Of a stretch of 64,000 nucleotides of DNA, positions 15,381 to 60,619 are shown piece by piece. A program made the position numbers and the translations under genes. The stretch comes from Candidatus Woesebacteria bacterium (GTDB lineage Bacteria > Patescibacteriota > Microgenomatia > UBA8517), in contig OY970314.1 of assembly GCA_963716475.1 (NCBI GenBank), positions 74,479-138,478 on the forward strand, written 5' to 3'. Under the pieces are notes generated by a model, which saw only the letters and a list, made by a program, of their open reading frames with translations, had not been told where the DNA came from and did not search any database. The stretch's first letter is position 1. The number at the start of each line of letters is the position of its first letter.

Positions 15381-15394
15381 TAATTAGTAGCAAA

Positions 15395-20467: not shown

Positions 20468-20473
20468 GAATAT

Positions 20474-33554: not shown

Positions 33555-34127
33555 ATGAATCAAAAAGCGCTTTTTAAACAAATACTGGCAACCCTTGTAA
33601 TTATATTGGCAGTTTTACCTGTGATTGTGACTTTTTCGGCAGTTTTGACTTCATTTTTCGAAAAAATTAAGCTTTATGTGTGGCTTCAGGATCTGGCTGT
33701 TCCTTTTGAAAGCAGACTGGTTGCGGTTCTAATCCAACTCTTTGGAATCAAAGGAATTATAACCCCCGGCAGCAGTTTTGCCATGGTTTTGCGGACATCC
33801 TCGGGGACTTTTACCCCGGTTGCATTGGAATGGAACTGTTTGGGCTGGCAAAGCCTGATTCTATTGGGTCTTACCCTAATAACAGGCCTCAGGGGAGCTT
33901 ACACGGGTTTAAGTAAAGCCCAGGTTGTTCTTTTCGGAATACTCGGAACTTTTTTATCAAATCTATTCAGGATGGCTTTTATTGTCATTCTGGCTTTTTA
34001 TTGGAATTCATTTGCAGCTATGATTATCCATGATTATTTTGCCAGTTTTGTCGCTATCATCTGGATGTTATTTTTCTGGTGGTTCTCCTACAGGTATATT
34101 TTGGAGGAAAAACCTGCGGGAAACTAA
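33555..34127 (+). CDS. Miniature exosortase/archaeosortase-like polytopic protein (cassette 2)
   Basis: 190 aa with 'EWNCLGWQS', 'SNLFRMAF', 'IIHDYFA' and the tail 'FWWFSYRYILEEK' shared with cassette 3. It starts 4 nt after the upstream stop. Confidence 0.62.
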   Translation: MNQKALFKQILATLVIILAVLPVIVTFSAVLTSFFEKIKLYVWLQDLAVPFESRLVAVLIQLFGIKGIITPGSSFAMVLRTSSGTFTPVALEWNCLGWQSLILLGLTLITGLRGAYTGLSKAQVVLFGILGTFLSNLFRMAFIVILAFYWNSFAAMIIHDYFASFVAIIWMLFFWWFSYRYILEEKPAGN

Positions 34128-34435
34128 ACCAATTTTTGCAATTTGAAATCGGGGAAGAGACGCTTTTTAATCAGGATGTCGCTTTCCTCGCCTATTTTAA
34201 TCGCTTCCAGTAAATTCTTCACCCCAGCCAAATTGATGCCCTTATTTTGCGTTAGGTAGCGTACAAATTGGAGTTTATTGATATCCTCAATGGAGAATAG
34301 TCTTCTTTTGGACTCGGATCGGTAGGGAGTAATGAGCCCGAGACTTTCGTAAAGCATAATTGTCCGTGGATGAACTTTCAAAAGTCTCGCAGCTATGGAT
34401 ATAGGCAGAATTGGACTCTCACTAAGCTCAGTCAT
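34124..34435 (-). CDS. MerR-family transcriptional regulator
   Basis: 103 aa. 'LPISIAARLLKVHPRTIMLYESLGLITPYRSESKRRLFSIEDINKLQFV' is a MerR/HspR-type HTH plus wing. It is divergent from giant gene 3. Confidence 0.75.
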   Translation of the reverse strand: MTELSESPILPISIAARLLKVHPRTIMLYESLGLITPYRSESKRRLFSIEDINKLQFVRYLTQNKGINLAGVKNLLEAIKIGEESDILIKKRLFPDFKLQKLV

Positions 34436-34926: not shown

Positions 34927-35006
34927 TTGACAGATGTTACCCACAAGGTGTTAACATAATATATTAGCATCGTTTTCACGGGATTTAGAAACTAATGTGT
35001 TAACAC
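34927..35006 (+). promoter_or_regulatory. Putative promoter/operator region of giant gene 3 (TTGACA ... TGTTAACAT ... GTGTTAACAC)
   Basis: TTGACA at 34927-34932, TGtTAACAT extended -10-like at 34949-34957, and a 10-bp perfect palindrome GTGTTAACAC at 34997-35006, 6 nt before ATG 35013. Confidence 0.4.
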
Positions 35007-35012
35007 CCTGCC

Positions 35013-38000
35013 ATGACACCTAAGTTATCAAAAGAGGGCCGTTTAAAGCTCATTGAACGCGTTGAAAAAGGCGAATCTGTCGCCAAGCTTTGCGCTGAAG
35101 CAGGAATTTCCCGGGTTCTTTTCTATAGATGGTATAAAAAGTATAAAAAGGGAGGTTTAATTGGCCTTAAACCTGGAGAAGCAGGCAGGCCGCAAACGTT
35201 TCACGCGCCTGAAAAGGGCAGGGTATACACAATTCTTTCACCAAAGGCCAGGAGTTTGATGGTCAAGGAAGTAGTAGAGCAGAATCAGGACGCAACAGAA
35301 GTCGCCGGACGCTATAACGTAAGCCGCGTCACACTATATAAATGGATAGACAGATATAAGGCTGATTTGGCAAAAGGTGTGGAACCGGATATGACCTCAA
35401 GAAAACCGTATGTGGAAAGGTATTTCAGGCAGGTTCCGGAGAAACACGAGCAGGCGGTTTTACAAATAGTAGAACAGCACCCTGAATGGGGTATTAGGAA
35501 AATTGTAGCCAATTTGCCGCAAGTTGCCGGAATCCCCATTATTGGACACCACGGTGTCCAAAACATACTTAACAGGCATAATCTGTCTACTTATGAGGTG
35601 CGCCTTGCCTACGCCAGATCCCGTGTTACTCCTATTACCCAGGGTATTGGTGGGGTACTGGAAAAAGTTACGGAGTTTTTCCAAATTGCTCCCGAAAAAA
35701 GGAAATCCTTTATCAAAAACTTCACCCGCATAAGTTTTGGGCTTTTTTCGCTGGTTGTAGTTCTCGGAGTTGTCAGTTACATTGCACGTTCCTTCTCGCA
35801 GGAGGCAGGAGCTTCACCACTGGGCTTAGGGTTTGCTTTTATAGCCCTTCTAATGGGCACAATATTCCTGTTCTATTCGTTTAAATACTATTTCAGCATT
35901 GCCATGGTGCTTTCATTTTCCCAGAATGAAAGTGGAAGTATTAGAAAGAGGGGGATTGGACTTACTCCAGACCTTTCGCATATAAAGCTTCTGAAAAGAC
36001 CGTATGTTTCGGTGCACATACCTTTTTATAACGAAAAGTATGTAGTTGAGCGTGCCATGGAGGCAGCATCGGGTTTTGATTATCCGGAGTATGAAGTGAT
36101 TCTTTGTGATGATTCTACTGATGAAACAACCAAAATAATCAGTAATTACCTGCATGCTAATGGAAAGAGCATTCAGAAGAAATCTGGAAACGGTTGGGAG
36201 CTTCAATGGACCGAAATAAAACCCGGAGTTACTTTTAAGCATCTTCACAGAACCAGCCGTGGCGGTTACAAAGGAGGAGCATTAAACCTGGCACTAAAAC
36301 TTACCGATCCCAGAACAGAATATGTATCAATTTTTGATGCGGACTTCGTGCCTTACCCGGATACATTGGAACTGTTCCTTAAGTATTTTCAGGTTGAAGG
36401 CAATAGGCCGGAAATCGCCGCGGTTCAGGGATATCAGTGGCACGTACTCAATAAATCCGAAAACTGGATTACCAGGGGAGTCAGAAGCGAATATGCGGGT
36501 TCCTATGTCATAGAAAGGGCAGGAACTGAGATCTACGGTGGTTTAAAGCAGATCTCCGGTTCGGTTTATATGATTAAGAAAGATGTCTTGCAGCAAATCG
36601 ACTGGGGGACTTCTATTACCGAGGATTTTGAACTAACCCTTCGGCTCTACGCTCAGGGCTACAAAGTTCTTTACACTCCCTATATACAGGCTCCGGCGGA
36701 GTGTGTTTCCACAATTAGGCGCTTGGTGCGTCAAAGAATGCGCTGGGCTGAGGGACACTCTGCCAATGTCAGAAAGATGTTCTTGAGGCTTATGAGAAGT
36801 CCCAAGCTTAATGCTACAGAAAAATTTGAATTTGTATATCTTTCACCCTACTACCTCCAGGCATTTTTCTTTTTGGTTGGGACTGTTTGCTGGTTTCTTT
36901 CTGAGGCCGTTTTTAAGGCAAGACTTCCTTTTTGGACTGAGCTTTGGGGTTGGAGTTTGGTATTAACCAACATGATTTCTCTCCCGCTTTTAAACGCGGT
37001 TGGAATGTTTCTCGAGGAAAGTGGGGAAAGGGATTACCTGGGCTTGGCATCATTTGCGGCTTTAAGCTATATCCTGGTGCCTTTCCAGGCATACGCTTCC
37101 GTTAAAGGATTTTTGGAGGATAAAGAAGGCCCCTGGTTTAGAACCCCAAAGACAGGCAGGATCACAGATATATTCAAAAGAGGTAAGTTTTACAGGTTTA
37201 TTTCCGGAATTTTGCCGGGGAAAGCCTCCGAGCCGGCTTCCGCTACCGGAAAACTTCTGCCGGGAGAAGCCCATGACATTGAGGCCAATTATTATTTGAA
37301 CTTAAACTCTGCCAATAATACCTTCAGCAACTTTAAAATTAAATCCAAAAAGGCTTATTGGATTGGGAATGCCGTAATCGGTATTACTGTTGCACTCAGC
37401 GGCTTACTTGTTTATTCCGGTTCGTTGATAAGCAAAGGAACTCTAATGGATTTACCGATTTCAACACGTGTTATTTCCGAAAGCCGTCCCAAGACGTTTC
37501 TTTCCAGACTGGAAATGTTTAAAGTCAAGGAGGTAATGGCCAATACCCTGCCACTACGAAAATCACTTCTGGCTCACGGAGAAAAAACATTGCCCCAACT
37601 CCTGGGAATATGGCCGATATTTATTTTTGCGCTTTTTGTCGCCCTACTTATTATCCTATTTATTAAGAGACGAAGTTTATTCAAGAAGGTGGTTTCGGTT
37701 GGTTTAATTATCTCGCTTGTCGCAAGTTGGCTTTTGTCCGGCTGGCCGGCCATTTGGAATTACCCGAGAATCCCGCCAAAGATCCGGGAAGCAAAGGCTG
37801 CGTTTGACGAGAGAACGGAAACAAACGTACAAGGAGCAAGCCTGAGTAGTCCTTATCAGGCCACTCTTGCTGTTCCTACCGGTACAACTAACGGAGACAT
37901 AATGTTCACTTGGATCGGTTCATATAGTGCTACCGTAACGACCAATGCTGCCTGGACTTTGATTGGAAGCAATACTACTAACAGTGATAAATATTACCTG

Positions 38001-41000
38001 TATGCTCGGGTAGCCTCAAGCGAACCGGCGTCATATGTCTGGACATTTTCAGGGACTTCAACATATAAAGCTACTTGTACCACCTATATAGCCAGTAGTG
38101 ATTTTAGTGTGACTAATGTTTCTACTGATCTTACCGTCAGCAATACTCCTTATAGAACATCTAATGGGACAAATCGTGCGGCGTCTTTTAGTGTTCCCAA
38201 TGCGAATTCGCCGTTATTGTTTTTCGGAGGCGTGTATTCTACAAGTTCCAAGACTCAGACTCCTCCTACAAACCCGGGAACATTCGCTGAAGATTATGAC
38301 ACGGGAAGCACCACTCCGGACTTTTGGTTGGAAATTGCTTCATATATTTGGGCCGGCTCCGGAACTAGCGGAGATATAGATTCCACGATTTCTGCTACTT
38401 TGACTACCAAACACGCTTTTGCTGTGGCATTGAAACCGCCGGCTGCTACAGTAAGCACAGGTGGCGGCCAAAAAGCTGGAATGGCCATTTCCAGCACTGA
38501 CAATTATGTCGGAGGGGAATTTATTATAGAGGAAGGTAGTGGGGGATCACGTAATGTAACAGGTATTACCATTGCCGAACAGGGGACAGTGAATGCCCAG
38601 ACGAACTTGGATAATATTAAACTTTATTATAATTCGGATACGAGTGCCCCCTATGATTGTGCCAGCAAAGCCTATACAGACGGAGACCTGAACCAATTCG
38701 GTTCCACTGACACAGATGGCTTCAGTGCGGCAAACGGTACCTCTGCTTTTACCGGTTCAGTGGGTATCAGCACCACTTCAACGATGTGTGTTTATGTGGT
38801 TTTGGATATCGGTTCGGGTGCCGGGAATGGAGATACATTAGAAATCCAGATTACCAATCCTTCAACTGATGTAACAGTCAGCAGCGGTTCGGTTAAACCA
38901 ATTACTGCCGTGCTTATCTCCGGAATTACTACAATTATGAATCCGGGCGTGATAGGCACTTTAGGAAAGTCCGCGGACGGTTGGGGTGGCGTCATTCCTG
39001 TTTATATGGAATTGGTCGGTGTAGATCAGGCAAGCTATCCCTATGCCAGGGCACAGGTTGTTACCCCAGCCTCAGAAACGTATTACACCACGATGACTTG
39101 GGATAGCGGGGATAACCGCTACGAGGGAGCGATTTATATCGGTTCCTGGTATTGTAATGCGTGTGCTGATAATCATACCGGAAGCTTTGCAGTGACGGTA
39201 CAGCTGGATAATAACTCCGGTTTTCCTTCAATAGATTACTCGGATAGCGTCGGCAATTTTGCTACAACGGTTACCCGCAGGCGAAGCTCCATCGGAGGAA
39301 CGACCAACTATGCAAAATATGCTGCGGTTTGGAGTACCGACCATTGGAATGTTCAGGCTTATGATTTTGATCTTTATACGGATTCGGGAACTATTACAAA
39401 TGCCGTTATCGGTATGGCTTTTCACCCCACGACGGCGGACATTTCCATTACCCAGGTCAGATTAAGTGATGGAGCGTGGATAACTACTCAATCTGCCGTC
39501 GACGGCACCGGTAACGGCTGGTGGTGGGACAGTTCGACCCATTCTCTGTATGTAAGAGTAGCTTCTCTGACGACCACTGCCCAAAATCTTGATTTTGAAT
39601 TTACTTCTTCGACTGACCTTTGGGCAACGCGTTTTGACAATGTCCAGACTACAGATATGGGGGAGCGTGACTTTTGGAACGGACTCTATATAAATAACCG
39701 TTATTACACAACCAGTATCTATGGATCTTCGCTTAACGTAGCCTTTAGCGGTACTGATCATGATAATGACGGAGTTCAGGCGGAATCAAGATCTCACAGG
39801 GATGGAACTTTAGAGAACGTAACAACCGACTGTATGGAAAGACTAGCGGTACACGTAGGACCTGACGGAGGAGGTACCCCAAGTGTGGCGAGACAGGATA
39901 ACAGCGTTGATTATAGCTACGATGTTAAATGGAAAGCGAACGATTTTGCAAATTGGATACAAAGTGAAAACGATGACCAAATGGTACTCTATGAAACCTC
40001 CGACGATCAGGGAAGTTGTACCGGTGGCAACATTCAGGCTTGGGCTCAATACTGCGATAATCAGATCGCAGCTCAAAGAACTCAAACTTTTTATGCAGGG
40101 AAACCCTACCTTAAAAACTATTATAAATTTATAAACAATGATACTAGTAGTCATTATTATGATATGGTTTGGGGAAGGGAGCAGTGGCTTAATGATTCTG
40201 CCGCTTCCACCAATGACCGGGGGATGACCTATGACAGCAATCCGAAGACAGTTGAGTGGTCCGGAGTTGACGATGAAAATCCGGATCAACCAACTTCTGC
40301 TCACCCATGGTTTGCCGCTTATGATATTACAGGTACCAACTTAATGGACGGAGTTTGTTATAAGTCCAACGATATTGCGACTAATAATTATTTTCTGTCA
40401 TACGCACCCCTTCAATCAGGATCCACCGCAGCCGAATGGCCGATTGATCATGGCCAGACAGGTACAGATGCTGCCGATACTTTCTTCAATAAATCTTTTG
40501 GTGTCGTTGGCGCAGGAAGTTCTGTAAACTTTACTTTTTGGCAGTTTAACTATTACGGAAGCTCTTTTGCCGATCTTAAATCAACAATTGATACAAATTG
40601 CACGGCGTTAAACGCACCCACATATAACCAATCCGCCTTCCGTTGGTTTAGTAATGATAATTCGGTATCAGTAGGTTCCCCAATAGTAAGTCAGGATACG
40701 GCGATGAGTAGTGAAACACCGCCTCAGGGGACACCTTTCCGTATGCGTGTCCTTCTACATGTGGATGGTAGCGATTTGGCCTCAAGCGGTCAGAATTTCA
40801 AGCTCCAGATTGCCTCGAAAGTAGGAGCGTCTTGTGATACTGATATGGATACAACCGACGAGTCGTACTCCGATCTGGTGACTACAACCGGAGCTATCCG
40901 TTATTATGACAACACTTCAGCCACGGATAATACAGCACTGACCGCGGATGTGACAAATGACCCCAGCCATAGTGGTCATACTAAAGTAACTCAAACCTAC

Positions 41001-41273
41001 AAAGATTTGGATACGAGCGATAGCAATATTAATTTCACTAATTCGGAAGGGGCGATACCTGTCGGTCAGGACGGAGAATGGGATTTTACCATCGTTGACA
41101 ATTCGGCCACGGAGGGAACGGATTATTGTCTTAGAATTGTTAAAGCTGACGATACAGTACTTGATACCTATTCCGTGGTGCCTGAATTTACTACGGTTCC
41201 GGAAAACCCGCTTCTCCTTTTTGGTCTGTATCCCCTATTTGCGGGATTTTTGAAAAAGCTGAGAAGGAAATAA
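35013..41273 (+). CDS. Giant gene 3: HTH modules - processive GT2 synthase - extra TM segments - ~1100-aa ectodomain - VPE-CTERM protein
   Basis: 2086 aa. HTHs 'VAKLCAEAGISRVLFYRWYKKYKKGG' and 'VAGRYNVSRVTLYKWIDRYK'. GT2 motifs 'CDDSTDET', 'FDADFVPYPD', 'QGYQWH', 'SITEDFELT' and 'RQRMRWAEGH'. It ends 'VVPEFTTVPENPLLLFGLYPLFAGFLKKLRRK'. Confidence 0.85.
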   Translation: MTPKLSKEGRLKLIERVEKGESVAKLCAEAGISRVLFYRWYKKYKKGGLIGLKPGEAGRPQTFHAPEKGRVYTILSPKARSLMVKEVVEQNQDATEVAGRYNVSRVTLYKWIDRYKADLAKGVEPDMTSRKPYVERYFRQVPEKHEQAVLQIVEQHPEWGIRKIVANLPQVAGIPIIGHHGVQNILNRHNLSTYEVRLAYARSRVTPITQGIGGVLEKVTEFFQIAPEKRKSFIKNFTRISFGLFSLVVVLGVVSYIARSFSQEAGASPLGLGFAFIALLMGTIFLFYSFKYYFSIAMVLSFSQNESGSIRKRGIGLTPDLSHIKLLKRPYVSVHIPFYNEKYVVERAMEAASGFDYPEYEVILCDDSTDETTKIISNYLHANGKSIQKKSGNGWELQWTEIKPGVTFKHLHRTSRGGYKGGALNLALKLTDPRTEYVSIFDADFVPYPDTLELFLKYFQVEGNRPEIAAVQGYQWHVLNKSENWITRGVRSEYAGSYVIERAGTEIYGGLKQISGSVYMIKKDVLQQIDWGTSITEDFELTLRLYAQGYKVLYTPYIQAPAECVSTIRRLVRQRMRWAEGHSANVRKMFLRLMRSPKLNATEKFEFVYLSPYYLQAFFFLVGTVCWFLSEAVFKARLPFWTELWGWSLVLTNMISLPLLNAVGMFLEESGERDYLGLASFAALSYILVPFQAYASVKGFLEDKEGPWFRTPKTGRITDIFKRGKFYRFISGILPGKASEPASATGKLLPGEAHDIEANYYLNLNSANNTFSNFKIKSKKAYWIGNAVIGITVALSGLLVYSGSLISKGTLMDLPISTRVISESRPKTFLSRLEMFKVKEVMANTLPLRKSLLAHGEKTLPQLLGIWPIFIFALFVALLIILFIKRRSLFKKVVSVGLIISLVASWLLSGWPAIWNYPRIPPKIREAKAAFDERTETNVQGASLSSPYQATLAVPTGTTNGDIMFTWIGSYSATVTTNAAWTLIGSNTTNSDKYYLYARVASSEPASYVWTFSGTSTYKATCTTYIASSDFSVTNVSTDLTVSNTPYRTSNGTNRAASFSVPNANSPLLFFGGVYSTSSKTQTPPTNPGTFAEDYDTGSTTPDFWLEIASYIWAGSGTSGDIDSTISATLTTKHAFAVALKPPAATVSTGGGQKAGMAISSTDNYVGGEFIIEEGSGGSRNVTGITIAEQGTVNAQTNLDNIKLYYNSDTSAPYDCASKAYTDGDLNQFGSTDTDGFSAANGTSAFTGSVGISTTSTMCVYVVLDIGSGAGNGDTLEIQITNPSTDVTVSSGSVKPITAVLISGITTIMNPGVIGTLGKSADGWGGVIPVYMELVGVDQASYPYARAQVVTPASETYYTTMTWDSGDNRYEGAIYIGSWYCNACADNHTGSFAVTVQLDNNSGFPSIDYSDSVGNFATTVTRRRSSIGGTTNYAKYAAVWSTDHWNVQAYDFDLYTDSGTITNAVIGMAFHPTTADISITQVRLSDGAWITTQSAVDGTGNGWWWDSSTHSLYVRVASLTTTAQNLDFEFTSSTDLWATRFDNVQTTDMGERDFWNGLYINNRYYTTSIYGSSLNVAFSGTDHDNDGVQAESRSHRDGTLENVTTDCMERLAVHVGPDGGGTPSVARQDNSVDYSYDVKWKANDFANWIQSENDDQMVLYETSDDQGSCTGGNIQAWAQYCDNQIAAQRTQTFYAGKPYLKNYYKFINNDTSSHYYDMVWGREQWLNDSAASTNDRGMTYDSNPKTVEWSGVDDENPDQPTSAHPWFAAYDITGTNLMDGVCYKSNDIATNNYFLSYAPLQSGSTAAEWPIDHGQTGTDAADTFFNKSFGVVGAGSSVNFTFWQFNYYGSSFADLKSTIDTNCTALNAPTYNQSAFRWFSNDNSVSVGSPIVSQDTAMSSETPPQGTPFRMRVLLHVDGSDLASSGQNFKLQIASKVGASCDTDMDTTDESYSDLVTTTGAIRYYDNTSATDNTALTADVTNDPSHSGHTKVTQTYKDLDTSDSNINFTNSEGAIPVGQDGEWDFTIVDNSATEGTDYCLRIVKADDTVLDTYSVVPEFTTVPENPLLLFGLYPLFAGFLKKLRRK
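41178..41270 (+). other. C-terminal sorting-signal-like region with tandem VPEF and VPEN motifs / hydrophobic / KKLRRK
   Basis: 'VPEFTTVPENPLLLFGLYPLFAGFLKKLRRK' at the extreme C-terminus of giant gene 3. Confidence 0.65.
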
Positions 41274-41282: not shown

Positions 41283-41888
41283 ATGCCTAAAAACACATTC
41301 AAGACAATTTTGGTTGTATTTTCAATTATCATAATGCTTTTACCCATTTTTGCGGCTCTGAATGGCTTTTTGACGGGGGTTTTAGATAACGCCGGCTGGT
41401 ATAGACCTGTCCAGCAGTTTATTGTTCCCTGGCAGGCGAGGATAGTAGCCGGGGTAATCCGCCCTTTCGGAATTAACTCCAAAGTAACTCCGGGAAGTTC
41501 GCTGTCAACTTTCTATATGATTAAAAAGGAAACTGCCATCCCTGTCGATTTGTCCTGGAACTGTTTGGGGTGGCAATCTATCTTGTTGCTAATAGTATCC
41601 CTGATAACAGGGTTAAGAGGGCCATTTACTCATCTTTCAAGGATAAAGTGCGTCCTGTTCGGTTTGGTGGGTACTCTGCTTATCAATATCTTAAGAATGA
41701 GTGTTATTGCCCTGGGAATCTATTATATTAATGCCCTGGCTGCACAAATTATTCATGATTACTTGGCAGCCTTTTTTACAATAATTTGGCTATTTATCTT
41801 CTGGTGGTTTTCATATAGATACATCCTGGAAGAAAAGGAAAGCCATGATACGGGGAATGATAATATGGAAGTTACACCGAAGGGTTGA
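41283..41888 (+). CDS. Miniature exosortase/archaeosortase-like polytopic protein (cassette 3)
   Basis: 201 aa with 'SWNCLGWQS', 'INILRMSV', 'IIHDYLA' and 'FWWFSYRYILEEK'. It starts 9 nt after the giant gene 3 stop. Confidence 0.62.
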   Translation: MPKNTFKTILVVFSIIIMLLPIFAALNGFLTGVLDNAGWYRPVQQFIVPWQARIVAGVIRPFGINSKVTPGSSLSTFYMIKKETAIPVDLSWNCLGWQSILLLIVSLITGLRGPFTHLSRIKCVLFGLVGTLLINILRMSVIALGIYYINALAAQIIHDYLAAFFTIIWLFIFWWFSYRYILEEKESHDTGNDNMEVTPKG

Positions 41889-41965: not shown

Positions 41966-42988
41966 TCATCGGTTCTTACCGCTCTTGATTTGTTTATCAA
42001 TTTGTTGATATATGGATAATGAAATATCCTGAATAACTCCCTCCAAGGACTGATAATCGTGCCCCCTGGTCATTATGCAAGCCATGTAGGGGTAGGATGG
42101 GTAGTAGACGATGCCACAGTCATGCAGTTGGATAAATGCGCCGTTTGCATCCCCGTATTCACCGAATTTGTGTGCAACTTCTATATTGGCCGGCAGTTTT
42201 GAGGTTAAACCCAAGTTAAATTTGGTTTGAGTTAAAAGTGAAAGAACTTTATTCGAATCACCTTTATTTAAATAGGAAGCATTATATAAAACGCTGTAAA
42301 AAGCTGAATATGCGTGAACGGATAAAGAAGGTTGATTGCCCATGAGTTCGGGTGCTTCAGCAAGACCAAGATCTGTATAAACACGTAGGTATCTGTCTTC
42401 GGAATCGAAGTTCAAAACCAAAAGATTTTTGGCATTATTGTCCGATTCGATAATCATTTTTTCGATTAATTGTTCGACTGTGTAAGTTTGTCCAACTTCG
42501 ATGGGGTTATCCGGTTTATAATGTTCGCTGGTATTAAAGTCTTCGAGGATTTTTGCTGTACTGTCTTGGTAACTAATTTCTTTTTTCAGAATAGTTGGAT
42601 CCTCCTCGGACCATTTATAATAGGCAACCGCAATCGGCAGCTTCAGAAGGCTCGCGGGGAAAAAATTTTGATCTTCCTGGATTCCGAACCACCCACCACT
42701 ATTGAGACTTTTAAAATAAACGGCGATTTCATCCGCCTTACCATCCTGCAGTTTTTGACTTACGACTTGGTTAACATCAGTTTTAAAATTTTTCAAAGCA
42801 TTGACGTAAAGTCCACTGTCAATTTGGTAATCAATAAGAGGGTTTACCAATCCGTTCTGTGAAGCCCGTATCAGTTTAATGGAGTAATTTGACAGGCTTA
42901 GGTTGTTTTTTCCTAAAAAGTAACCTACGAAGCCAGCCGCTCCTATCAGTAGGATAATCAGGAGCAAAAATAATATTCGTTTTAGCAT
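41966..42988 (-). CDS. Membrane-anchored serine hydrolase, class A beta-lactamase / DD-peptidase-like
   Basis: 340 aa with an N-terminal TM, 'PASLLKLP' (SxxK), 'ESDN' (SDN) and 'HKFGEYG' (KTG-equivalent). Confidence 0.65.
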   Translation of the reverse strand: MLKRILFLLLIILLIGAAGFVGYFLGKNNLSLSNYSIKLIRASQNGLVNPLIDYQIDSGLYVNALKNFKTDVNQVVSQKLQDGKADEIAVYFKSLNSGGWFGIQEDQNFFPASLLKLPIAVAYYKWSEEDPTILKKEISYQDSTAKILEDFNTSEHYKPDNPIEVGQTYTVEQLIEKMIIESDNNAKNLLVLNFDSEDRYLRVYTDLGLAEAPELMGNQPSLSVHAYSAFYSVLYNASYLNKGDSNKVLSLLTQTKFNLGLTSKLPANIEVAHKFGEYGDANGAFIQLHDCGIVYYPSYPYMACIMTRGHDYQSLEGVIQDISLSIYQQIDKQIKSGKNR

Positions 42989-43117
42989 GACAGGTAGATT
43001 ATCAGAAATAGTATACTAGAAAAAGATTTAGGTACAATGGGACAAAAAAGAATCCATTGTGCGAAAACCCATTGACGTATATTGGGGTGTTTGGGTACAC
43101 TTGGGGCTGAATTAAAA

Positions 43118-43813
43118 ATGAAAATTGCCTTGATTATTCCCACATACAATGAAGCCGAAAATATTGTTAACCTGATACGGGGTGTAAAACTCCGAAATCT
43201 TAATTTAAAAATAATTGTAGTTGATGACGCCTCACCTGACGGTACCGGAAAGAAGGTTTCGAAATTTCCTGAGGTAATATTGATTTCCAGAAAGGGAAAA
43301 CTGGGTCTGGGGTCTGCCTATAAGGAAGGTTTTAAATATGCTTTAAGGCAGGGATATGATGTTATCGGAACAATGGATGCGGACTTTTCCCACGACCCGA
43401 AATTTCTTCCGGAAATGGTAACCGCAATAAAAAGGTGCGACATGGTAATAGGTTCCAGATATGTCAAAGGTGGGAATATAGTCGGTTTTAATTTTTGGAG
43501 AAAATTAATAAGCGGATCGGCGCAGTTCATGTCAAGGAAACTTTTGGGAATAAACGTTAAAGACGCCACAAGCGGTTTTAGATTATATAAAAAAGATGTT
43601 CTTATAACAACCGGTTATGCATCGATTAAGTCCCAGGGGTATTCTTTTTTGATCGAATCTCTATTTTTATCCCTAAAACACGGCTTTAATGTATGTGAAG
43701 TACCAATCGTTTTTGAAAACAGAAGACTGGGAACATCAAAAATATCGGGCTCGGAAATTATAAAGGCCCTATTTACAGTTGTCAGGCTTAAGTATAAATT
43801 TAATTTGGCTTAG
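43118..43813 (+). CDS. Polyprenol-phosphate glycosyltransferase (Dpm1-like GT2)
   Basis: 'MKIALIIPTYNEAENI', 'VVDDASPDGT' and 'DADFSHDP'. I chose ATG 43118 over the upstream-extended 43082. Confidence 0.8.
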   Translation: MKIALIIPTYNEAENIVNLIRGVKLRNLNLKIIVVDDASPDGTGKKVSKFPEVILISRKGKLGLGSAYKEGFKYALRQGYDVIGTMDADFSHDPKFLPEMVTAIKRCDMVIGSRYVKGGNIVGFNFWRKLISGSAQFMSRKLLGINVKDATSGFRLYKKDVLITTGYASIKSQGYSFLIESLFLSLKHGFNVCEVPIVFENRRLGTSKISGSEIIKALFTVVRLKYKFNLA

Positions 43814-45154
43814 ATGAAAGAAAATATTCCCAAGGAGGAGGAGAAAATTTCAGCCATCAGGGCGGCCAGGGTGTCTGAAAAAATCCGTCAGGCAAAACTT
43901 GGCCTTTTGGCAAGGAGGGCCTGGTGGAGTGACGGTCCTCTCGAAGATGCTGTACTTCTTCTGGTTTTATTCTTAAATTTTTATCTGATCTTTCCTTTGA
44001 TTGGGAAGGAAGCTCCGATTGTCACTTTTTCGGGACCTGTTATCCCGGTTCTTACAAATTTACTTTCTTCACTAATTAATAGCCCGTTTTATTATTCTCT
44101 TCAGATAGTATATATAGTGTTTTTTCTGGCTTTTCCGGTTACTTTTTATTTCTTGATTAAAAAATTGACAAACCGGAAGCTAATTGCTTTTTTTGCATGT
44201 CTTTTTTCCACTATTCCCATATACATGTTGGGTAGAACCAGACTGATGTCGATGTTTTTCGGTCAGGACGGGCCGCACGTGGTTTCACTTACAGTGATAC
44301 CTGTTGCCTTATACTTCTTGATTATCTATTTGAAAGAAGGATCCATAAAAGACCTGATTTACGCCGGCTTGAGCGCTGCCCTTGTAGCTTTGATTTCCCC
44401 TTTCGGGTTTTTAAATTATCTTATATTTGCCGGAATATTTACTTTTTCCGAAATCTTGCTGGGCCAGGGGAGGACAAAAATACTGAAATTCCTTCTTATC
44501 CTTGTGACTGCAGGAGCTTTATCGGCCTTTTGGTATAATCCGTCATTTTTTATCTGGATGCTGACAGGCCCTATGGGAAGCGACATCAGATCTATGGTTT
44601 CCAAACTTTTACCCGTTTCCTTTTTTGCCATTCCGATTCTGGCAACATTCGGCTATCTTTTATTTGACCGTAAACCCAATTTGCAGCCTCTTTTTATTGT
44701 CAGTTTTTGCACAATAGCATTTTTTATTATTACCGTTGCCGGCGGGAACCTTGTTCCTTCAAGCCCGGCAAGATACCGGACGGAATTGGGGATTACCGTT
44801 TCTTTCTTGGCGGCATTTCTATTTGTTTCTTTAATTGAACTTTTTAAGTTTCGGGTTATTAAAGTAAACCTTACCGGAAAAGTTTGGGATTTTTTGTCGA
44901 ATTTGGTAGTTCCGGCCTTGGGGGTAGCATTCCTTGTTACCGGGATTTTAATTCGTGACGTAATGATCTACGACAGCACGGATGTACTCGGGATTTGGAC
45001 GGAGATTCCAAAAGGAAGTGTCTGGGTAGCCAGAGATAATTTTATGGGCTACCACGCGTATATAGGTTATTCAATAACTGCGATAGCGTTAGGAGCTTTG
45101 ATTTACTTAGCCGTTAAAGGCAACTCTGTAGCTAAAATAAAAACAATTGTCTAA
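43814..45154 (+). CDS. Polytopic membrane protein, GT-C-like (paralogue of 13846-15228)
   Basis: 446 aa with more than 10 hydrophobic segments. The ATG abuts the upstream stop. It shares the 'GPVIPVL' block with ORF 13846. Confidence 0.5.
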   Translation: MKENIPKEEEKISAIRAARVSEKIRQAKLGLLARRAWWSDGPLEDAVLLLVLFLNFYLIFPLIGKEAPIVTFSGPVIPVLTNLLSSLINSPFYYSLQIVYIVFFLAFPVTFYFLIKKLTNRKLIAFFACLFSTIPIYMLGRTRLMSMFFGQDGPHVVSLTVIPVALYFLIIYLKEGSIKDLIYAGLSAALVALISPFGFLNYLIFAGIFTFSEILLGQGRTKILKFLLILVTAGALSAFWYNPSFFIWMLTGPMGSDIRSMVSKLLPVSFFAIPILATFGYLLFDRKPNLQPLFIVSFCTIAFFIITVAGGNLVPSSPARYRTELGITVSFLAAFLFVSLIELFKFRVIKVNLTGKVWDFLSNLVVPALGVAFLVTGILIRDVMIYDSTDVLGIWTEIPKGSVWVARDNFMGYHAYIGYSITAIALGALIYLAVKGNSVAKIKTIV

Positions 45155-46153
45155 ATGAAAAAAGCATTAGTTACTGGAGGGGCAGGCTTCATAGGAACGA
45201 ATCTGGTTTTGAAACTCCTGGAAAACGGTTGGAAAGTTACAGTTTTGGACAACCTTTCCAGAAAAGGAACAAAATTTAATCTTGATTTAATAAGGAAAAG
45301 TGCAGGAAAAGGTTTCCTGGAATTATTAATTAGAGATATCAGAGAGAAAAATATTTTTGACAACCTTATTAATACAGATGCCATCTTTCACCTGGCCGGG
45401 CAAACTGCAGTGACCACTTCAGTAATAAACCCGTCGGAGGATCTGGACATTAATTTATTTGGAACATTCAATCTACTGGAGAGCATGAGAAAGAAAAAAA
45501 GCAGGTCAGTTCTTATTTATGCATCAACGAATAAAGTTTACGGGTCGCTCTCTTATCTAAGTCGCACGAAATTAATGGATGGTGTCTCTGAGGAAACTAA
45601 TCTGGATTTCCATTCTCCTTACGGTTGTTCAAAAGGATCAGCGGAAAGTTATATCCGTGACTACGCGAGAATTTATGATATCAATAGTGTCGTTTTCCGG
45701 CAGTCTTGTATTTACGGAACTCATCAAATGGGAGTTGAGGATCAGGGTTGGGTGGCCCATCTGGGAGCGAGGGCGATTTTGGGCAAAACTATAAATATTT
45801 ACGGCAGCGGGGGTCAAGTTCGCGATCTTCTTTATGTAGACGATTTAGTTGATTTATACCTTTTATCTGTTCGGAGTCAAGATAAGGTTAAGGGTAAAGT
45901 GTTTAATGTTGGGGGAGGACGACAAAATGCAATTTCAGTTTTAGAGTATATAGATTTTTTGTCGTATTATTTGAAGAAAGACATTAAAACGTCCAAAAAT
46001 GATACTCGGCCTGGGGACCAGGAAGTTTTTATCTCCGACAACTCTTTAGTCAAACGGGTACTTGATTGGCAACCTAAAGTCGGTTATAAGATAGGTCTTG
46101 TAAGGATGCTTTCATGGATAAAGGAAAATCAACAAATCTTCAAAAACCTTTGA
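45155..46153 (+). CDS. NAD-dependent sugar-nucleotide epimerase/dehydratase (extended SDR)
   Basis: 'VTGGAGFIGTNLV' Rossmann motif and 'YGCSKGSAE' (YxxxK). 332 aa. Confidence 0.85.
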   Translation: MKKALVTGGAGFIGTNLVLKLLENGWKVTVLDNLSRKGTKFNLDLIRKSAGKGFLELLIRDIREKNIFDNLINTDAIFHLAGQTAVTTSVINPSEDLDINLFGTFNLLESMRKKKSRSVLIYASTNKVYGSLSYLSRTKLMDGVSEETNLDFHSPYGCSKGSAESYIRDYARIYDINSVVFRQSCIYGTHQMGVEDQGWVAHLGARAILGKTINIYGSGGQVRDLLYVDDLVDLYLLSVRSQDKVKGKVFNVGGGRQNAISVLEYIDFLSYYLKKDIKTSKNDTRPGDQEVFISDNSLVKRVLDWQPKVGYKIGLVRMLSWIKENQQIFKNL

Positions 46154-47379
46154 AAGTAGTATTTATTCATTGCGGTTTTATTTATTCGGGAGGCGGTGAA
46201 AGAATCGTTCTTGAGGAAGCAAAAGGTCTTGCCCAAAGGGGTTATAAAGTTGAAGTTTATGCGCCAACCGTTGATTACAAAAAATGTTTTCCTGAGTTTC
46301 TGAAAGAGCTGAATGTCAAAATGCTCCTCCCCAGTTTTACAGAACGTCTTCCTTATCGAAATGCTATTCGTATGGTTGCTTCGAGTTTTTTGGCTCCGTT
46401 TCTTGCACTTTGGTTTAGGGATGCGGACATTTTAATTGGTGCAAATCAACCCGGAATTTGGATTGCTTTTTGTGCCGCCAAAATACTTGGCAAACCTTAT
46501 ATAGCATATTTGAATCAACCCAATAGGGTGATTTATCCGAGACCCGTTGATATTGAATATGGCTGGTACACAACCAATAAAGACTACCACATTCTTTATA
46601 GAATTTTGAAGATCGGAGGGACTTTCTTAAGATTTCTTGACCGGGAGTCAATTTCTCAAGCGGATAGTGTTTTAACAAATGGAGGTTATATCGGTTCAAT
46701 TATTCAAAATGTATATTCTGTTAAGACTATAGACGATCCTGCCGGTTCACATTTTCAACCAATCAAAAATATTAGCGGCAAAAAGGGTCAGACATACAAA
46801 GGTTCCTTAAGAATTTCGGGGACGATAATTAATAAACCATATCTTTTAATAACCAACAGGCATGATCCTCAAAAGAGATTCGATTATGTGATTAATGCGT
46901 TTGCTTATGTATTAAAAAAGAATCCAAAAGTAGAGCTTGTGATCCCCGGGCCGTTTACCGAACACACAGCGACACTTATTAGATTAGTCAAAAAGTTGGG
47001 TATAAGCGGAAAAGTTCATTTTACGAAGGGGATTACCGAAAATGATCTACAAAAACTTTATAAAAACGCGTGCGTTTATTGTTATCCGTCTCCACAGGAA
47101 GATTTTGGTCTTGGTCCTTTGGAGGCAGGAGGCTGGGGGGTTCCTACTGTTGCCTGGAATCATGCGGGCCCGACAGTCACAGTAGATAACGGTAAAACAG
47201 GGTATCTGGCTAAGCCTTTCGAAATTGAAGATTATGCGAAGCAGATACAAAAAATTTTGGAGAACAAAAATTTACGGTTAAAACTCGGGGTATTGGCTTG
47301 GCAAAGAACCAAAAATATTTTTTCCTGGGACAGGCACATAGATGTCCTTGAAAAGGAGATAAGGAAGAATATACCATAG
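46114..47379 (+). CDS. GT4-family (GT-B) glycosyltransferase
   Basis: C-terminal 'EDFGLGPLEAGGWGVPTVAWNHAGP' (E-x7-E type). ATG 46114 overlaps the upstream gene by 40 nt. An in-frame TTG at 46150 (a TTGA overlap with the upstream stop) is an alternative start. Confidence 0.78.
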   Translation: MDKGKSTNLQKPLKVVFIHCGFIYSGGGERIVLEEAKGLAQRGYKVEVYAPTVDYKKCFPEFLKELNVKMLLPSFTERLPYRNAIRMVASSFLAPFLALWFRDADILIGANQPGIWIAFCAAKILGKPYIAYLNQPNRVIYPRPVDIEYGWYTTNKDYHILYRILKIGGTFLRFLDRESISQADSVLTNGGYIGSIIQNVYSVKTIDDPAGSHFQPIKNISGKKGQTYKGSLRISGTIINKPYLLITNRHDPQKRFDYVINAFAYVLKKNPKVELVIPGPFTEHTATLIRLVKKLGISGKVHFTKGITENDLQKLYKNACVYCYPSPQEDFGLGPLEAGGWGVPTVAWNHAGPTVTVDNGKTGYLAKPFEIEDYAKQIQKILENKNLRLKLGVLAWQRTKNIFSWDRHIDVLEKEIRKNIP

Positions 47380-47384
47380 ATGGT

Positions 47385-48995
47385 ATGTTTGGGAACCTTT
47401 TCGATAAGATTTTGGGTGGTGAGGAGAATGTTGTTGAAGAGATCAAAAGCGAGGTAGTTGAACAAAAAAGCAATTTGAGTCCTGCCAAGATAAAAAATTT
47501 TCTAAAAAACTCCTGGCAACCACTTCTTGTATTCTTGATAGCTTTAGCTCCAAGACTAATTTTTCTTTTTACACATGACCCGCAAAATGCCGGTATGGAT
47601 TGGTATGGCGATGTCTACCATCATTGGCAAATTGCTTATCTTTCCGGAAAAATAGGGTTTGGCGTTTCCTTTTTGAGACTGTGGGACTTGAAAGGCTTGG
47701 AGTTTTTTTGGGGATTGGGACATCCTTTAGTTTTAAATATACTTTTTTGGTTAACAGGAAGTGTAAGTATAATAATTCCAAGACTTTTATCCGTGGTTTG
47801 CGGCTCACTTGTAGTTTCTTTCATTTTTGTTTTGGTGAAACGCTACTTTAGTCTGCCAACCGCCATTCTGGTTGCTGCCTGGGCGGCATTTTTCTCTGTA
47901 GCTTTATTCTCAGACACTTTGGGCATGCAGGAACAGTTGGGTCTTGTTGCGCTTCTCGGAGGAATAATTGCCTGGCCGGCTGCCCCGTTAGCCACTGGTT
48001 TAGCTTGGTTTTTTGCTTCTACCGTCCGTTCGGAATACTGGCTTTTTGCTTTAGGGCTTTTTCTAGTTGCATTGCTAAGGCACGAAGATAAAGGTTCCGG
48101 AAAGAAGGCCGTTTTAGCCTTGGCTTACCTCCTGCCGATAATTTTTTACATGAAGTACTTATTACAATATACAGGCAACGCCATTTTTCCTATCTACTGG
48201 AATTTTCTGGCATCGGTTATCGGTAAATGGTTTACGAATGTTGACACTCCTTTTACAGCAGAGCAAGTTACGGCAAGACTTATCGGCAAGGGAATATTTG
48301 CCTTAGGTTTTATCGGAACTGTCGTAACTTTCTTTAAAAAACCAAAGGCCAACCTGCTATTTTTAGCTGGGTTTTTAAATATCACTTTTGTAGGTTTTAT
48401 TTTTGGATTTGCTGCCTATACTCATGGATTTTTTGACCGCTTTTGGGTGGACAGACTGTTTGCTTATCCATACGTTTTTGCTGGGATGACGGTTCTTATT
48501 GCTGTTTGCGAATGGCTGCCGAAACTTCTTAAAACCGGTAAAAAAGCTTTCATCGGGATCGGAGTTGTGGTTTTGTTGGTTATTTTGGGTGTGGGACAGC
48601 TGGCATGGGTGAAAATTGATAAATACTGGGCAATAGCACAGGGTCCTTATAAAAATGAATTGGCTGTAGGGGAGTTCTTGGGCAAAAATATCGGCTCCGA
48701 CGGAAAAGTACTTTTCCCGGCGGATCGTCCTGTTTTGACGTATGTTTTGGTATATGACCATAAATTTGACGGGGCAAGAATTGTATCTCAAATGTACGAC
48801 CCTTATTACTATGCAAACGGAGAGGATAAATCGATAATCGAGGAAAAGTTTTTAACTTGGCTTAAGAAGGAAAATATTAAATATATTGTCTATACGAACA
48901 GGGTAGAATACCTGGAGGTGTTTGCCAAATACCCTGGTGAATTTAAGAATATGGGCGATAGTCTCGGAACCTCCCTATATGAAGTTTTTCAATAG
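47385..48995 (+). CDS. Polytopic membrane protein, GT-C (ArnT/PMT-like) architecture
   Basis: 536 aa with about 12 hydrophobic segments and a C-terminal soluble tail. The family assignment is unverified. Confidence 0.5.
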   Translation: MFGNLFDKILGGEENVVEEIKSEVVEQKSNLSPAKIKNFLKNSWQPLLVFLIALAPRLIFLFTHDPQNAGMDWYGDVYHHWQIAYLSGKIGFGVSFLRLWDLKGLEFFWGLGHPLVLNILFWLTGSVSIIIPRLLSVVCGSLVVSFIFVLVKRYFSLPTAILVAAWAAFFSVALFSDTLGMQEQLGLVALLGGIIAWPAAPLATGLAWFFASTVRSEYWLFALGLFLVALLRHEDKGSGKKAVLALAYLLPIIFYMKYLLQYTGNAIFPIYWNFLASVIGKWFTNVDTPFTAEQVTARLIGKGIFALGFIGTVVTFFKKPKANLLFLAGFLNITFVGFIFGFAAYTHGFFDRFWVDRLFAYPYVFAGMTVLIAVCEWLPKLLKTGKKAFIGIGVVVLLVILGVGQLAWVKIDKYWAIAQGPYKNELAVGEFLGKNIGSDGKVLFPADRPVLTYVLVYDHKFDGARIVSQMYDPYYYANGEDKSIIEEKFLTWLKKENIKYIVYTNRVEYLEVFAKYPGEFKNMGDSLGTSLYEVFQ

Positions 48996-49794
48996 CCACG
49001 AAGTTTTTTATCCCTGGCCAAAGGCTCTCAGGGCAAGCGGTTTTAAATATCTTTTTAGACCCAGGGAGGTTTTTTGGTTGGAAAACCTTATACAACTTGG
49101 TTCCCAAAAAGGGCAGAAAGCGTTGGAGGTAGGTTGCGGCCGGGGGGTAACCTTGGATCGGCTTAAGAAGGAATTTGGACTGGATACTTTTGGAGTGGAT
49201 ATTGCGGATGAGGCAATAACTGATGCCAAAAAAGAGTGTTTATTTAAACATGATTTGAGAGTGGGAAGTGCTACCAAACTGCCCTTTGAAGACGATTTTT
49301 TTGATTTGGTTGTGACTTTTGATGTTTTAGAACACATAGAAGATCAAAAGAAAGCAATATCGGAAATGGCCAGGGTAGTTAAAAAAGGGGGAAAGATTCT
49401 TATCTATACTATCAATAAGAACCAAACGGGAACCTGGAATTGGTTGCTCGATAAACTGGGGATAGATGTTTACAAACGATCGGATCATGACCCGAATCTT
49501 TTTTTGGACTCTAAATGGCTTGAAAGAGAATTGACCGGCTGCGGAATTAAGTTGGAAGAAGTTTCCTACTATGATGCTTTTTGGACCCTAGCTGCCAATG
49601 AGATTATTACGGTGTGCTTTATGCTATTCGGCCGAATATTTAATTGGGAAAAAAGCGCTGATTTTGGTAAGATGAAGTTAGGTTTTGCTACCTTATTTTC
49701 GAGATTTGTCGGTTTGATTTTGCGGATTTTGGATTTACCTTGGACAATATTCGGAAAATCTAATGCAGTTTTGGTTTGGGGTTATAAAGAATGA
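48979..49794 (+). CDS. Class I SAM-dependent methyltransferase
   Basis: 'ALEVGCGRGVTL' (motif I) and 'FDLVVTFDVLEHI'. I prefer the internal ATG 48979 to 48922 because it minimises overlap. Confidence 0.75.
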   Translation: MKFFNSHEVFYPWPKALRASGFKYLFRPREVFWLENLIQLGSQKGQKALEVGCGRGVTLDRLKKEFGLDTFGVDIADEAITDAKKECLFKHDLRVGSATKLPFEDDFFDLVVTFDVLEHIEDQKKAISEMARVVKKGGKILIYTINKNQTGTWNWLLDKLGIDVYKRSDHDPNLFLDSKWLERELTGCGIKLEEVSYYDAFWTLAANEIITVCFMLFGRIFNWEKSADFGKMKLGFATLFSRFVGLILRILDLPWTIFGKSNAVLVWGYKE

Positions 49795-57009: not shown

Positions 57010-57026
57010 GGTTTATTTTTAATTAA

Positions 57027-58397: not shown

Positions 58398-58399
58398 TC

Positions 58400-59185
58400 A
58401 TGAAATTGCAAAAAAAATTTTTGAAAATTTTTCTTCAAAAACAGCCTTCTTTCCAGGCACTTTTTAGATCTGTTGAGGCAGATGCTTTAGCTGATTACAC
58501 AATCATTGATCCTGTAGTGGATCTTGGTTGTGGAGATGGTTCGTTTACTGAAGCATTTTTGGGGAAGGGCAGAAAAATAATAGGAATAGACACAAATCCC
58601 AAGGATTTAAAAGAAGCGGAGAAAAGGGGAATATATTCTAATATCTACGAAACCTCAGGTAGCAACCTCCCTCAAAAGGATGAACAGGTGGGTACGGTAT
58701 TTGCAAATAGCGTTTTGGAACACATAAAAGATTTAGATCCGGTCCTAAAGGAGTCGTATAGGGTTTTAAAAAAGGGAGGGACATTTGTTTTTACGGCTCC
58801 TAGTGAAAAAAGATTAAAACTTTATTTAGTTTACCGTCTACTTTCATTTTTTAGACTAAATAGGCTAGCAACTGTATCAGCCAACCTTATGGATAAGATA
58901 TTTGTACATTATAATTGTTGGTCATCGAAAACATGGAGCAATAAGCTGCATAATATTGGATTTAGCAAGGTCAAATATCAGTATAGAGGGTCACCCAGGA
59001 TATCACTAATCAGTGATCTTCTTTTCATCTTTGCGCCCATAGGATATTTAGAGAAGAAATTATTTGGACGCTATTTAGGATGGAGAAAGTATATAAGCCT
59101 GGTAATATATTTGTTTCTAAAAGATTACAAAGATGCATTGATTGGTAATAACGGTTCTGTTATAGTCGTTGAGGCAACCAAATAA
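58400..59185 (+). CDS. Class I SAM-dependent methyltransferase
   Basis: 'VVDLGCGDGSF' motif I and 'FANSVLEHIKD'. 261 aa. Confidence 0.75.
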   Translation: MKLQKKFLKIFLQKQPSFQALFRSVEADALADYTIIDPVVDLGCGDGSFTEAFLGKGRKIIGIDTNPKDLKEAEKRGIYSNIYETSGSNLPQKDEQVGTVFANSVLEHIKDLDPVLKESYRVLKKGGTFVFTAPSEKRLKLYLVYRLLSFFRLNRLATVSANLMDKIFVHYNCWSSKTWSNKLHNIGFSKVKYQYRGSPRISLISDLLFIFAPIGYLEKKLFGRYLGWRKYISLVIYLFLKDYKDALIGNNGSVIVVEATK

Positions 59186-60615: not shown

Positions 60616-60619
60616 CGGT

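Follow-up and report, generated by a model that had tools for sequence, protein, structure and literature searches.

The window analysed here is a stretch of 64,000 nt (positions 1-64000) from the genome of a Candidatus Woesebacteria bacterium, a host belonging to the candidate phyla radiation (CPR). It holds three cassettes in which a long open reading frame (ORF) ending in a short C-terminal tail, the target, is paired with a gene for a small protein of the exosortase/archaeosortase family, the mini-sortase. The three cassettes are a dedicated [VI]PEx-CTERM and mini-sortase system, restricted to proteins that combine helix-turn-helix (HTH) domains, a family 2 glycosyltransferase (GT2) module and an ectodomain, and they represent a new variant of exosortase-type sorting. 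Target and sortase are related about 1:1 and lie adjacent, which is what dedicated means here, and the unit consists of a constant synthase, a variable ectodomain, a constant tail and its own sortase. The analysis established that the motif exists, is conserved and is strictly linked to the sortase, that the catalytic residues are conserved, and that the two partners also occur as natural fusions; we consider it probable that the tails act as recognition and cleavage signals for the small enzyme encoded downstream.

The three targets are long ORFs on the forward strand, and they share two HTH pairs followed by a GT2 module flanked by membrane segments, a large C-terminal region and the tail. 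Target 1 (15395-19282, 1295 aa) was assigned from Pfam and NCBIfam matches, GT2 motifs and membrane segments; its two HTH pairs are followed by a GT2 processive-synthase module with membrane segments, an ectodomain of 444 aa and a VPEK tail. Target 2 (20438-31612, about 3724 aa, the TTG start being uncertain) carries the HTH pairs, the GT2 module, an ectodomain of 2862 aa with a Laminin_G_3 domain inside it, and a VPEY tail, and target 3 (35013-41273, 2086 aa) has the HTH pairs, the GT2 module, an ectodomain of 1175 aa and the tail. The GT2 motifs DDSTDE, DAD, TED and RQRMRW are found in all three, so the N-terminal module has the D, DxD, TED and Q(R/Q)xRW motifs and the flanking membrane segments of processive GT2 beta-glycan synthases of the BcsA, PgaC and NodC type. 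BcsA provides the nearest solved chains to this module (E=3e-14), and no equivalog cut-off was reached by it, PgaC for instance scoring 87 bits vs 422.

The HTH-GT2 modules of the three window proteins are 54-58% identical to each other, and the ectodomains have no similarity (E>0.5) other than the tail; when the ectodomains of genes 2 and 3 are compared, it is all that matches locally. As the tail is conserved and the ectodomains adjoining it are unrelated, the tail is selected independently of the domain before it. In genes 1 and 2, 4-5 Lys/Arg residues stand before and 0-1 after the membrane segment ahead of the ectodomain, and gene 3 has three membrane segments, an odd number, before its large region. 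This charge bias and the odd segment number predict an extracellular position for the large region and a cytoplasmic one for the basic end of the tail. An N-terminal signal peptide was not found on the targets, whose N-termini are HTH domains followed by the polytopic GT2 module.

Tail 1 (19187-19279, forward strand) translates to VPEKLIFALPLISLIPIIIKKRKEILLNRNG and divides into VPEK, the hydrophobic stretch LIFALPLISLIPIII, the basic KKRKE and 7 further residues; it scores 29.9 bits against the hidden Markov model (HMM) of the family tails. Tail 2 (31520-31609, forward strand) translates to VPEYLLLFLPLAPLLPFLSRVKKKRGALIR, that is VPEY, the hydrophobic LLLFLPLAPLLPFLS, the basic RVKKKRG and then ALIR. 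Tail 3 (41178-41270, forward strand, stop codon 41271-41273) translates to VPEFTTVPENPLLLFGLYPLFAGFLKKLRRK, and its in-register signal (41196-41270) is made of VPEN, the hydrophobic PLLLFGLYPLFAGFL and the basic KKLRRK. The three targets thus end in ...LQVPEKLIFALPLISLIPIIIKKRKEILLNRNG, ...LKVPEYLLLFLPLAPLLPFLSRVKKKRGALIR and ...SVVPEFTTVPENPLLLFGLYPLFAGFLKKLRRK. An initial annotation of the window had quoted the three tails with coordinates that proved right to within one codon; the sequences were real, but the strings quoted for tails 1 and 2 stopped 7 and 4 residues short of the end, respectively, and the gene 3 string starting 'VV' begins at 41175 and not at 41178. The order motif, hydrophobic part, basic part at the extreme C-terminus, which it had described, is what we find (VPEK, VPEY or VPEN, about 15 Pro-rich hydrophobic residues and a Lys/Arg cluster), and the count of 2, 3 and 2 prolines in the hydrophobic stretches agrees with its statement on Pro content.

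The consensus over the family is [VI]-P-E-[NKY] with prolines at +11 and +14. Among 68 HMM-aligned tails the first position is V or I in 62, the second P in 66 and the third E in all 68, the next residue being N, K or Y; Pro or Gly stands at about +8, Pro at +11 in 43/68 and at +14 in 48/68. The hydrophobic segment covers about 15 residues with a mean Kyte-Doolittle hydropathy of 2.15, and the K/R cluster starts from about +18. Family tail segments contain 1.8 Pro per 15 residues vs 0.25 in the other predicted membrane segments of the same proteins (12.1% vs 1.7% Pro), and Pro richness of the tail is hence a trait of the family. From the end of the signal to the stop codon there are 0-8 residues in the window and 0-48 in relatives, one subgroup of which carries a conserved cytoplasmic extension of about 35 aa after the tail. 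This is the VPEIP subgroup seen among homologues of target 1 (P0125, P0147, P0150, P0160, P0161, P0166, P0168, P0169 and P0199; P-numbers denote database homologues and L-numbers fetched loci), with a Pro-rich hydrophobic segment, a basic cluster and an extension of about 35 aa that ends ...LDxLPV in 8/9.

Criteria for tripartite sorting signals have been laid out (Haft 2023, bioRxiv 10.1101/2023.06.07.544157). The tails show a tripartite signal close to the C-terminus, with a motif of at least three nearly invariant residues abutting the hydrophobic segment, and this membrane segment is followed by a basic cluster. The regular adjacency of enzyme and target genes, which the same work gives as the alternative for dedicated systems, is also found.

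Mini-sortase 1 (19275-19838, forward strand, 187 aa) has an ATG that overlaps the end of target 1 by 8 nt, mini-sortase 2 lies at 33555-34127 (forward strand, 190 aa), and mini-sortase 3 (41283-41888, forward strand, 201 aa) begins 10 nt downstream of the target 3 stop codon. Against the superfamily model TIGR04178 the three score 38.3, 32.2 and 31.6 bits, respectively, and so pass its cut-off of 23, and 21/21 aligned members match it at E<=0.01. None of the named subfamily cut-offs was reached (XrtG, XrtX, XrtS, XrtH, ArtC, ArtF, ArtH, CrtC, pacearchaeosortase and others), hence functional transfer draws on the superfamily signature only. Mini-sortase 3 has 94 homologues in a database clustered at 90%, whose source names go no further than 'exosortase/archaeosortase family protein'. 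When 1.84 billion representatives were searched exhaustively with a profile, 538 sortase-family clusters at 50% identity came up with E<=0.001, and 77 with E<=1e-30.

In the profile of 21 members Cys94, Arg138 and His158 are invariant, and over the sortase copies from the fetched loci and the window they are kept in 89/90, 90/90 and 90/90, respectively. Cys, Arg and His form the triad proposed for exosortases and archaeosortases (bioRxiv 10.1101/2023.06.07.544157). The AlphaFold2 (AF2) model of mini-sortase 3 (pLDDT 82.9) has four long helices, two of them (2-37 and 41-62) before a small beta-insert and two after the short helix 92-95, which holds Cys94 and leads into helix 97-110; Arg138 lies in 117-148 and His158 in 151-181. 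Read this way the sortase would have four spans, with both termini cytoplasmic and helix 41-62 and the insert outside, and from such a layout Cys, Arg and His would face the outer leaflet. Foldseek found nothing in the PDB that matches the model at E<=0.001, and a PDB sequence search with the sortase profile returned nothing meaningful.

A scan with one genome per GTDB species gave 88 matching stretches, which correspond to 79 loci in 56 assemblies, nearly all of them Microgenomates (Woese-, Curtiss-, Chisholm-, Gottesman- and Levybacteria). A tail-bearing ORF was detected on the same strand at most 4.5 kb upstream of 71 of the 77 sortases that have at least 600 nt of upstream sequence, and the gap between target and sortase is at most 150 nt in 48 cases. 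As a test free of regular expressions, a tail HMM seeded solely from the three window tails was then run on the 90 C-terminal residues of each of the 1239 ORFs (100 aa or longer) in the sortase-fetched loci. It found 45 matches outside the window (E<=0.01), 42 of which lie within 4.5 kb upstream of a same-strand sortase. After three iterations there were 62 matches near a sortase and 3 far from one, where the background comprised 168 ORFs near and 991 far (Fisher p=4e-53), which is well beyond chance. The 3 far matches are genuine targets, two being second targets at L001 and L005 and one standing before a frameshifted sortase at L012. In the window the HMM matches the three target ORFs only.

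Such an HMM had been proposed as a check by the initial annotation, according to which absence of the motif from orthologues would refute its proposed VPEx-CTERM class; the motif is present there and tightly linked to the mini-sortase. Homologues of target 1 matched the tail HMM in 84 of 120 cases, and 11 more were recognised by eye (9 with 'VPEIP...' and 2 others); most of the remaining 25 look cut off. Every 5'-complete tail-bearing ORF in the CPR loci carries HTH and GT2 modules. At eight loci the targets appeared to lack GT2, and the idea of unrelated carriers was dropped because these are fragments of HTH-GT2 genes, caused by frameshifts or masked N.

Some loci deviate from the common arrangement. 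Second targets flank a single sortase (2:1) at L001 3281-18335 and L005 4722-18430, the second target having no downstream sortase of its own. At L012 4313-4990 a shortened target tail comes before pieces of a sortase that lie in different frames, and this is a decayed or mis-assembled cassette with a frameshifted sortase. Many of the metagenome-assembled genomes with the cassette (L001, L003, L005, L006, L070 and others) are titled 'uncultured Gammaproteobacteria', 'Pseudomonadales' or 'Bathyarchaeia'; such titles are probably wrong taxonomic labels, as the cassette is otherwise found in Microgenomates.

Further we looked at database homologues and loci in which target and sortase are joined in one polypeptide. 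In P0287 and P0325 the order is GT2, ectodomain, VPEN, hydrophobic segment, basic linker and sortase; P0292 and P0247 are shorter, lack the GT2 part and read ectodomain, VPEN and sortase, with a hydrophobic segment that is clear in P0292 and degenerate in P0247. The opposite order is found in P0258, P0264, P0268, P0284, P0298 and P0326, where the sortase is followed by a small ectodomain, PG[IVM]VV[PSD]E, a hydrophobic segment and then basic residues in a cluster. The sequence of P0361 is partial and keeps just the end of the sortase domain; it has the same build as this second group, and its tail begins EISEDLL without the motif. In the chain at L070 5186-10594, a locus titled Bathyarchaeia, a GT2-ectodomain-tail gene is followed by two sortase-ectodomain-tail genes and a lone sortase, so that each tail directly precedes a sortase domain. 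As judged from their sequences, the fusions are independent evidence that enzyme and tail work together, and the target-then-sortase order puts the N-terminus of the sortase on the cytoplasmic side.

The fusions bear on a different explanation, in which the tail does no more than hold the far end of the ectodomain in the membrane for good, as a C-terminal anchor or stop-transfer segment, and the exosortase-like protein is employed otherwise, for example as a non-proteolytic partner of GT2. The target is already anchored on its N-terminal side, so anchoring as such needs no cleavage, and exosortase genes often lie in polysaccharide loci where they have no proven protease role (bioRxiv 10.1101/2023.06.07.544157). 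A plain anchor, however, needs neither an invariant [VI]-P-E at the membrane boundary nor fixed prolines; nor does it sit well with the near-complete conservation of the Cys/Arg/His triad (89-90 of 90 copies), with target-sortase fusions in both orders, or with a tail that is conserved although the neighbouring ectodomain varies. We hence regard a permanent anchor as unlikely and return to a tail that is recognised and cut.

The initial annotation had taken the tails as C-terminal sorting signals served by an exosortase-like enzyme, and this agrees with our results, which place them with the PEP-CTERM, PEF-CTERM or PGF-CTERM type. It had also proposed a distinct VPEx-CTERM class. The signal is indeed distinct, since 64 of 65 family tails match no named -CTERM model at E<=10, but its carriers are one family (twin HTH, GT2, ectodomain and tail) and it is no general tag. 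The three window tails gave no match at E<=10 against NCBIfam and Pfam, and the curated models for PEP-CTERM, PEF-CTERM, VPEID-CTERM, Firmicu-CTERM and other signals did not recognise the tail. Among the 65 tails we found one match to PEP_CTERM (E=0.015), one to NF038129 (E=0.23) and one to PepA (E=0.081); it should be noted that the HMMER filters may hide some very weak tail matches.

The cassettes could also be ordinary members of a described system, be it PEP-CTERM with an XrtA-type enzyme, PEF-CTERM with archaeosortase C (ArtC), VPEID-CTERM or XrtG with Firmicu-CTERM. The cassettes have the tripartite layout and a P-E core in common with such signals, ArtC and XrtG are among the best-scoring specific models for the sortases, and one tail has the weak PEP_CTERM match given above. 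These specific models nevertheless remain far under their cut-offs, ArtC with 31.2 bits vs 100 for window sortase 1, which is the best named-subfamily score, and XrtG with 16.2 vs 102.75 for window sortase 3; for the set of 21 aligned sortases, ArtC reaches an E-value of 1.9e-07 at best and XrtG one of 6.5e-06 (no bit scores were reported). Moreover 64/65 tails match no sorting-signal model, position +2 is N, K or Y and not P, and the carriers are GT2 fusions that lack signal peptides. Membership of the XrtG or ArtC systems fails on these curated cut-offs and signal models, and we consider it very improbable that the cassettes belong to any of the four systems.

The closest analogue is the XrtG cassette of Firmicutes, a dedicated system with a small exosortase, one Firmicu-CTERM target and GT2 enzymes (PMC12854382). 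Both have a small exosortase (model length 187 aa for XrtG) and GT2 glycosyltransferases (TIGR03110 and TIGR03111 for XrtG) in bacteria without an outer membrane, and XrtG is among the top specific matches for 11/21 sortases. The glycosyltransferase score is however only 24 vs 363.95, GT2 and target of the window form one polypeptide with an added HTH part, several cassettes occur per genome, and none of the 65 family tails matches a Firmicu-CTERM model. PEP-CTERM with exosortases of the XrtA/XrtB type shares the tripartite signal, the P-E core abutting the hydrophobic segment, the basic cluster, the Cys/Arg/His triad and the genomic link to polysaccharide synthesis. Here, in contrast, the motif is [VI]PE[NKY] and not PEP, prolines lie inside the hydrophobic segment, the basic cluster is Lys-rich, the relation is that of one sortase to a single target and not to many, the signal peptide is lacking, the host is a monoderm CPR bacterium and the enzyme has only about 190 aa. 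ArtC (TIGR03762) recognises a PEF-type signal (PMC5244752), and it is the best specific model for window sortase 1 and gene 3 holds the string PEF; that PEF is out of register, however, no PEF-CTERM model match was obtained, and ArtC systems are archaeal with many targets. ArtA of Haloferax volcanii removes the C-terminal helix of PGF-CTERM proteins, which is linked to lipid attachment, and may act as a one-step transpeptidase; of the superfamily members treated in one paper (bioRxiv 10.1101/2023.06.07.544157), only ArtA has experimental evidence of helix removal together with lipid attachment. PGF-CTERM/ArtA serves as mechanistic template for our reading, although it differs in its motif, in the greater length of the enzyme and in its substrate, an S-layer glycoprotein that is secreted and has a signal peptide.

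Gene 3 has two VPE motifs, the first reading PEF, as initially noted: an upstream VPEF (41178-41189, forward strand) and a membrane-adjacent VPEN (41196-41207, forward strand). Among gene-3-type tails the pair recurs as VPEF..VPEN in L001 (two copies), L002, P0137 and P0208 and as IPEI..VPEN in P0156, with an upstream motif of the form [VI]PE[FI] throughout; L004 has VPQF..IPEN, and PEN is invariant in this clade. The tandem motif is absent from the tails of all other clades. We read VPEN as the signal, because it alone abuts the hydrophobic segment and places Pro at the family position +11, and because signals of membrane-embedded sorting enzymes abut the membrane segment with no spacer (bioRxiv 10.1101/2023.06.07.544157). 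It had been suggested that both motifs function and offer two alternative cleavage sites, and retention of the VPEF site in most of the close gene 3 orthologues does show that it is not random drift within the clade. VPEF is nonetheless out of the family register by 6 residues, which separate it from the hydrophobic segment, has become VPQF in L004 and is missing from every other clade, and the repeat TV[VI]PEF-TTVPEN resembles a duplicated terminal strand. Two working sites are accordingly unlikely, and VPEF looks like a clade-specific duplicated strand.

If the tails are recognised and cut as proposed, the process may be pictured as follows. The substrate would be one polypeptide with cytoplasmic twin HTH domains, the GT2 synthase in the membrane, a hypervariable ectodomain outside and the C-terminal [V/I]-P-E-x tail, whose motif abuts a Pro-containing hydrophobic segment of about 15 aa and then a cytoplasmic Lys/Arg cluster. 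The mini-sortase would dock the tail inside the membrane and cut at or just after VPE by its Cys/Arg/His site, which would remove the C-terminal anchor. By analogy with ArtA, the new C-terminus could then pass to an acceptor with an amine, for instance a lipid, the cell wall or the glycan that the GT2 domain of the same protein makes. The substrate would stay anchored by the GT2 domain, so that processing would free or re-attach the distal end of the ectodomain only. The conserved prolines at +11 and +14 lie deep in the segment and away from the motif, and for this reason a part in docking is more likely for them than one in unwinding at the scissile bond.

A number of points weigh against this reading. 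Six of the 77 sortases have no detectable upstream target (among them L017 has masked N runs and L053 matches a partial sortase only). The N-terminal signal peptide that most carriers of such signals should have, attribute 6 of Haft 2023, is lacking. Four of the six full-length sortase-then-target fusions have another residue in place of the motif's Pro (VVSE in three and VVDE in one), and two read VVPE. The substrate would stay bound to the membrane by its GT2 domain after cleavage, which makes the usual rationale of anchoring a secreted protein inapplicable. The sortases score far under all named subfamily cut-offs, and PDB sequence and fold searches found no solved structure of the mini-sortase family. 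Helix boundaries of the sortase differ between AF2, where 41-62 is a helix, and a 19-residue hydropathy scan, which gives five hydrophobic segments and leaves 41-62 uncounted. The four-span layout with the triad at the outer side is our own reading and no tool output, and cleavage in every member, the exact bond, the helix topology and the acceptor are likewise what we infer.

Further, we speculate that the whole protein might be a synthase-adhesin unit, in which GT2 makes a glycan, the ectodomain is displayed, and the private mini-sortase joins the C-terminus of the ectodomain covalently to this glycan, the wall or a lipid. We hold this extension with little confidence. If true, the surface of Microgenomates would be built of self-contained 'synthase-adhesin' units, a route of protein-glycan conjugation without described counterpart would exist, and the long-suspected link between exosortases and exopolysaccharide synthesis would be demonstrated physically.

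CPR organisms rely on surface contact with their hosts, and their giant surface proteins are largely unexplained. The link between exosortases and polysaccharides has so far been one of gene neighbourhood; here the target and a processive glycan synthase form one protein, which in some cases includes the sortase as well, and exosortase action is thereby tied physically to polysaccharide synthesis. No current protein-family model covers the tail-sortase pairing. In the literature searched there was no co-mention of archaeosortases with Patescibacteria or of PEP-CTERM with CPR terms, and exosortase and CPR were co-mentioned in two records only, once in each, both on hot-spring viruses (a preprint and its journal version). 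The signal ([VI]PEx, PxxP, basic cluster) is searchable and together with the sortase clade (538 clusters) may yield annotation models, and a 190-aa enzyme with a single substrate would make a minimal system for biochemistry and structure.

The HTH domains of the targets come as two IS481/IS630-type pairs in each (15395-16170, 20438-21250 and 35013-35670, forward strand). A DNA-binding module fused to a polysaccharide synthase is odd, and source annotations read 'glycosyltransferase/transposase'. We rejected a transposon reading of the HTH domains, as all transposase models score under their cut-offs with matches limited to the N-terminal HTH part, and as the HTH-GT2 fusion is kept in more than 100 homologues. 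A search for an operator that the HTH domains might have in common found no word of at least 9 nt present upstream of all three genes. The regions just before genes 1 and 3 (15340-15394 and 34940-35012) each hold a promoter-like 'TATTGAC', followed about 20 nt on by GGTAACA or GTTAACA, and gene 2 has no obvious counterpart of this TATTGAC / G[GT]TAACA pair.

Between target 2 and mini-sortase 2 lies a gene for a PMT_2/TMEM260-like GT-C glycosyltransferase with C-terminal TPR repeats (31625-33550, forward strand; PF11028 with 92 bits, PF13231 and TPR). At L008, L063 and L075 the sortase is preceded by an ORF with a TPR-like C-terminus, and one has to go 2.5-3.0 kb further upstream to reach the tail-bearing ORF; judged by these C-termini and positions, the three loci appear to share the GT-C insertion. 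The position of the GT-C gene between target and sortase hints at O-glycosylation of the ectodomain. A gene of the Beta-lactamase2 family (41966-42988, reverse strand) is a recurrent neighbour of the mini-sortase, as found by domain scan in the window and at L080 (1684-2606). By resemblance of the C-terminus, a similar ORF stands between target and sortase at L004, L036 and L067, and another upstream of the sortase at L019, where no target was found.

Other features of the window are a MerR-family regulator (34124-34435, reverse strand), which is divergent from gene 3, and, further upstream, a PEGA-domain membrane protein (4197-5399, reverse strand). Downstream of the third cassette a long run of same-strand ORFs extends over 43082-62826 (forward strand), and four of these were scanned: a GT2 (43082-43813), a 999-aa protein with a PTPS_related membrane domain (49791-52790), and the ORFs 43814-45154 and 52774-55557, which had no Pfam match. 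Nearly all long ORFs of the window lie on the forward strand. GC skew is positive in every 4-kb bin and the cumulative skew climbs steadily, and the window is probably located within one replichore with strong strand bias.

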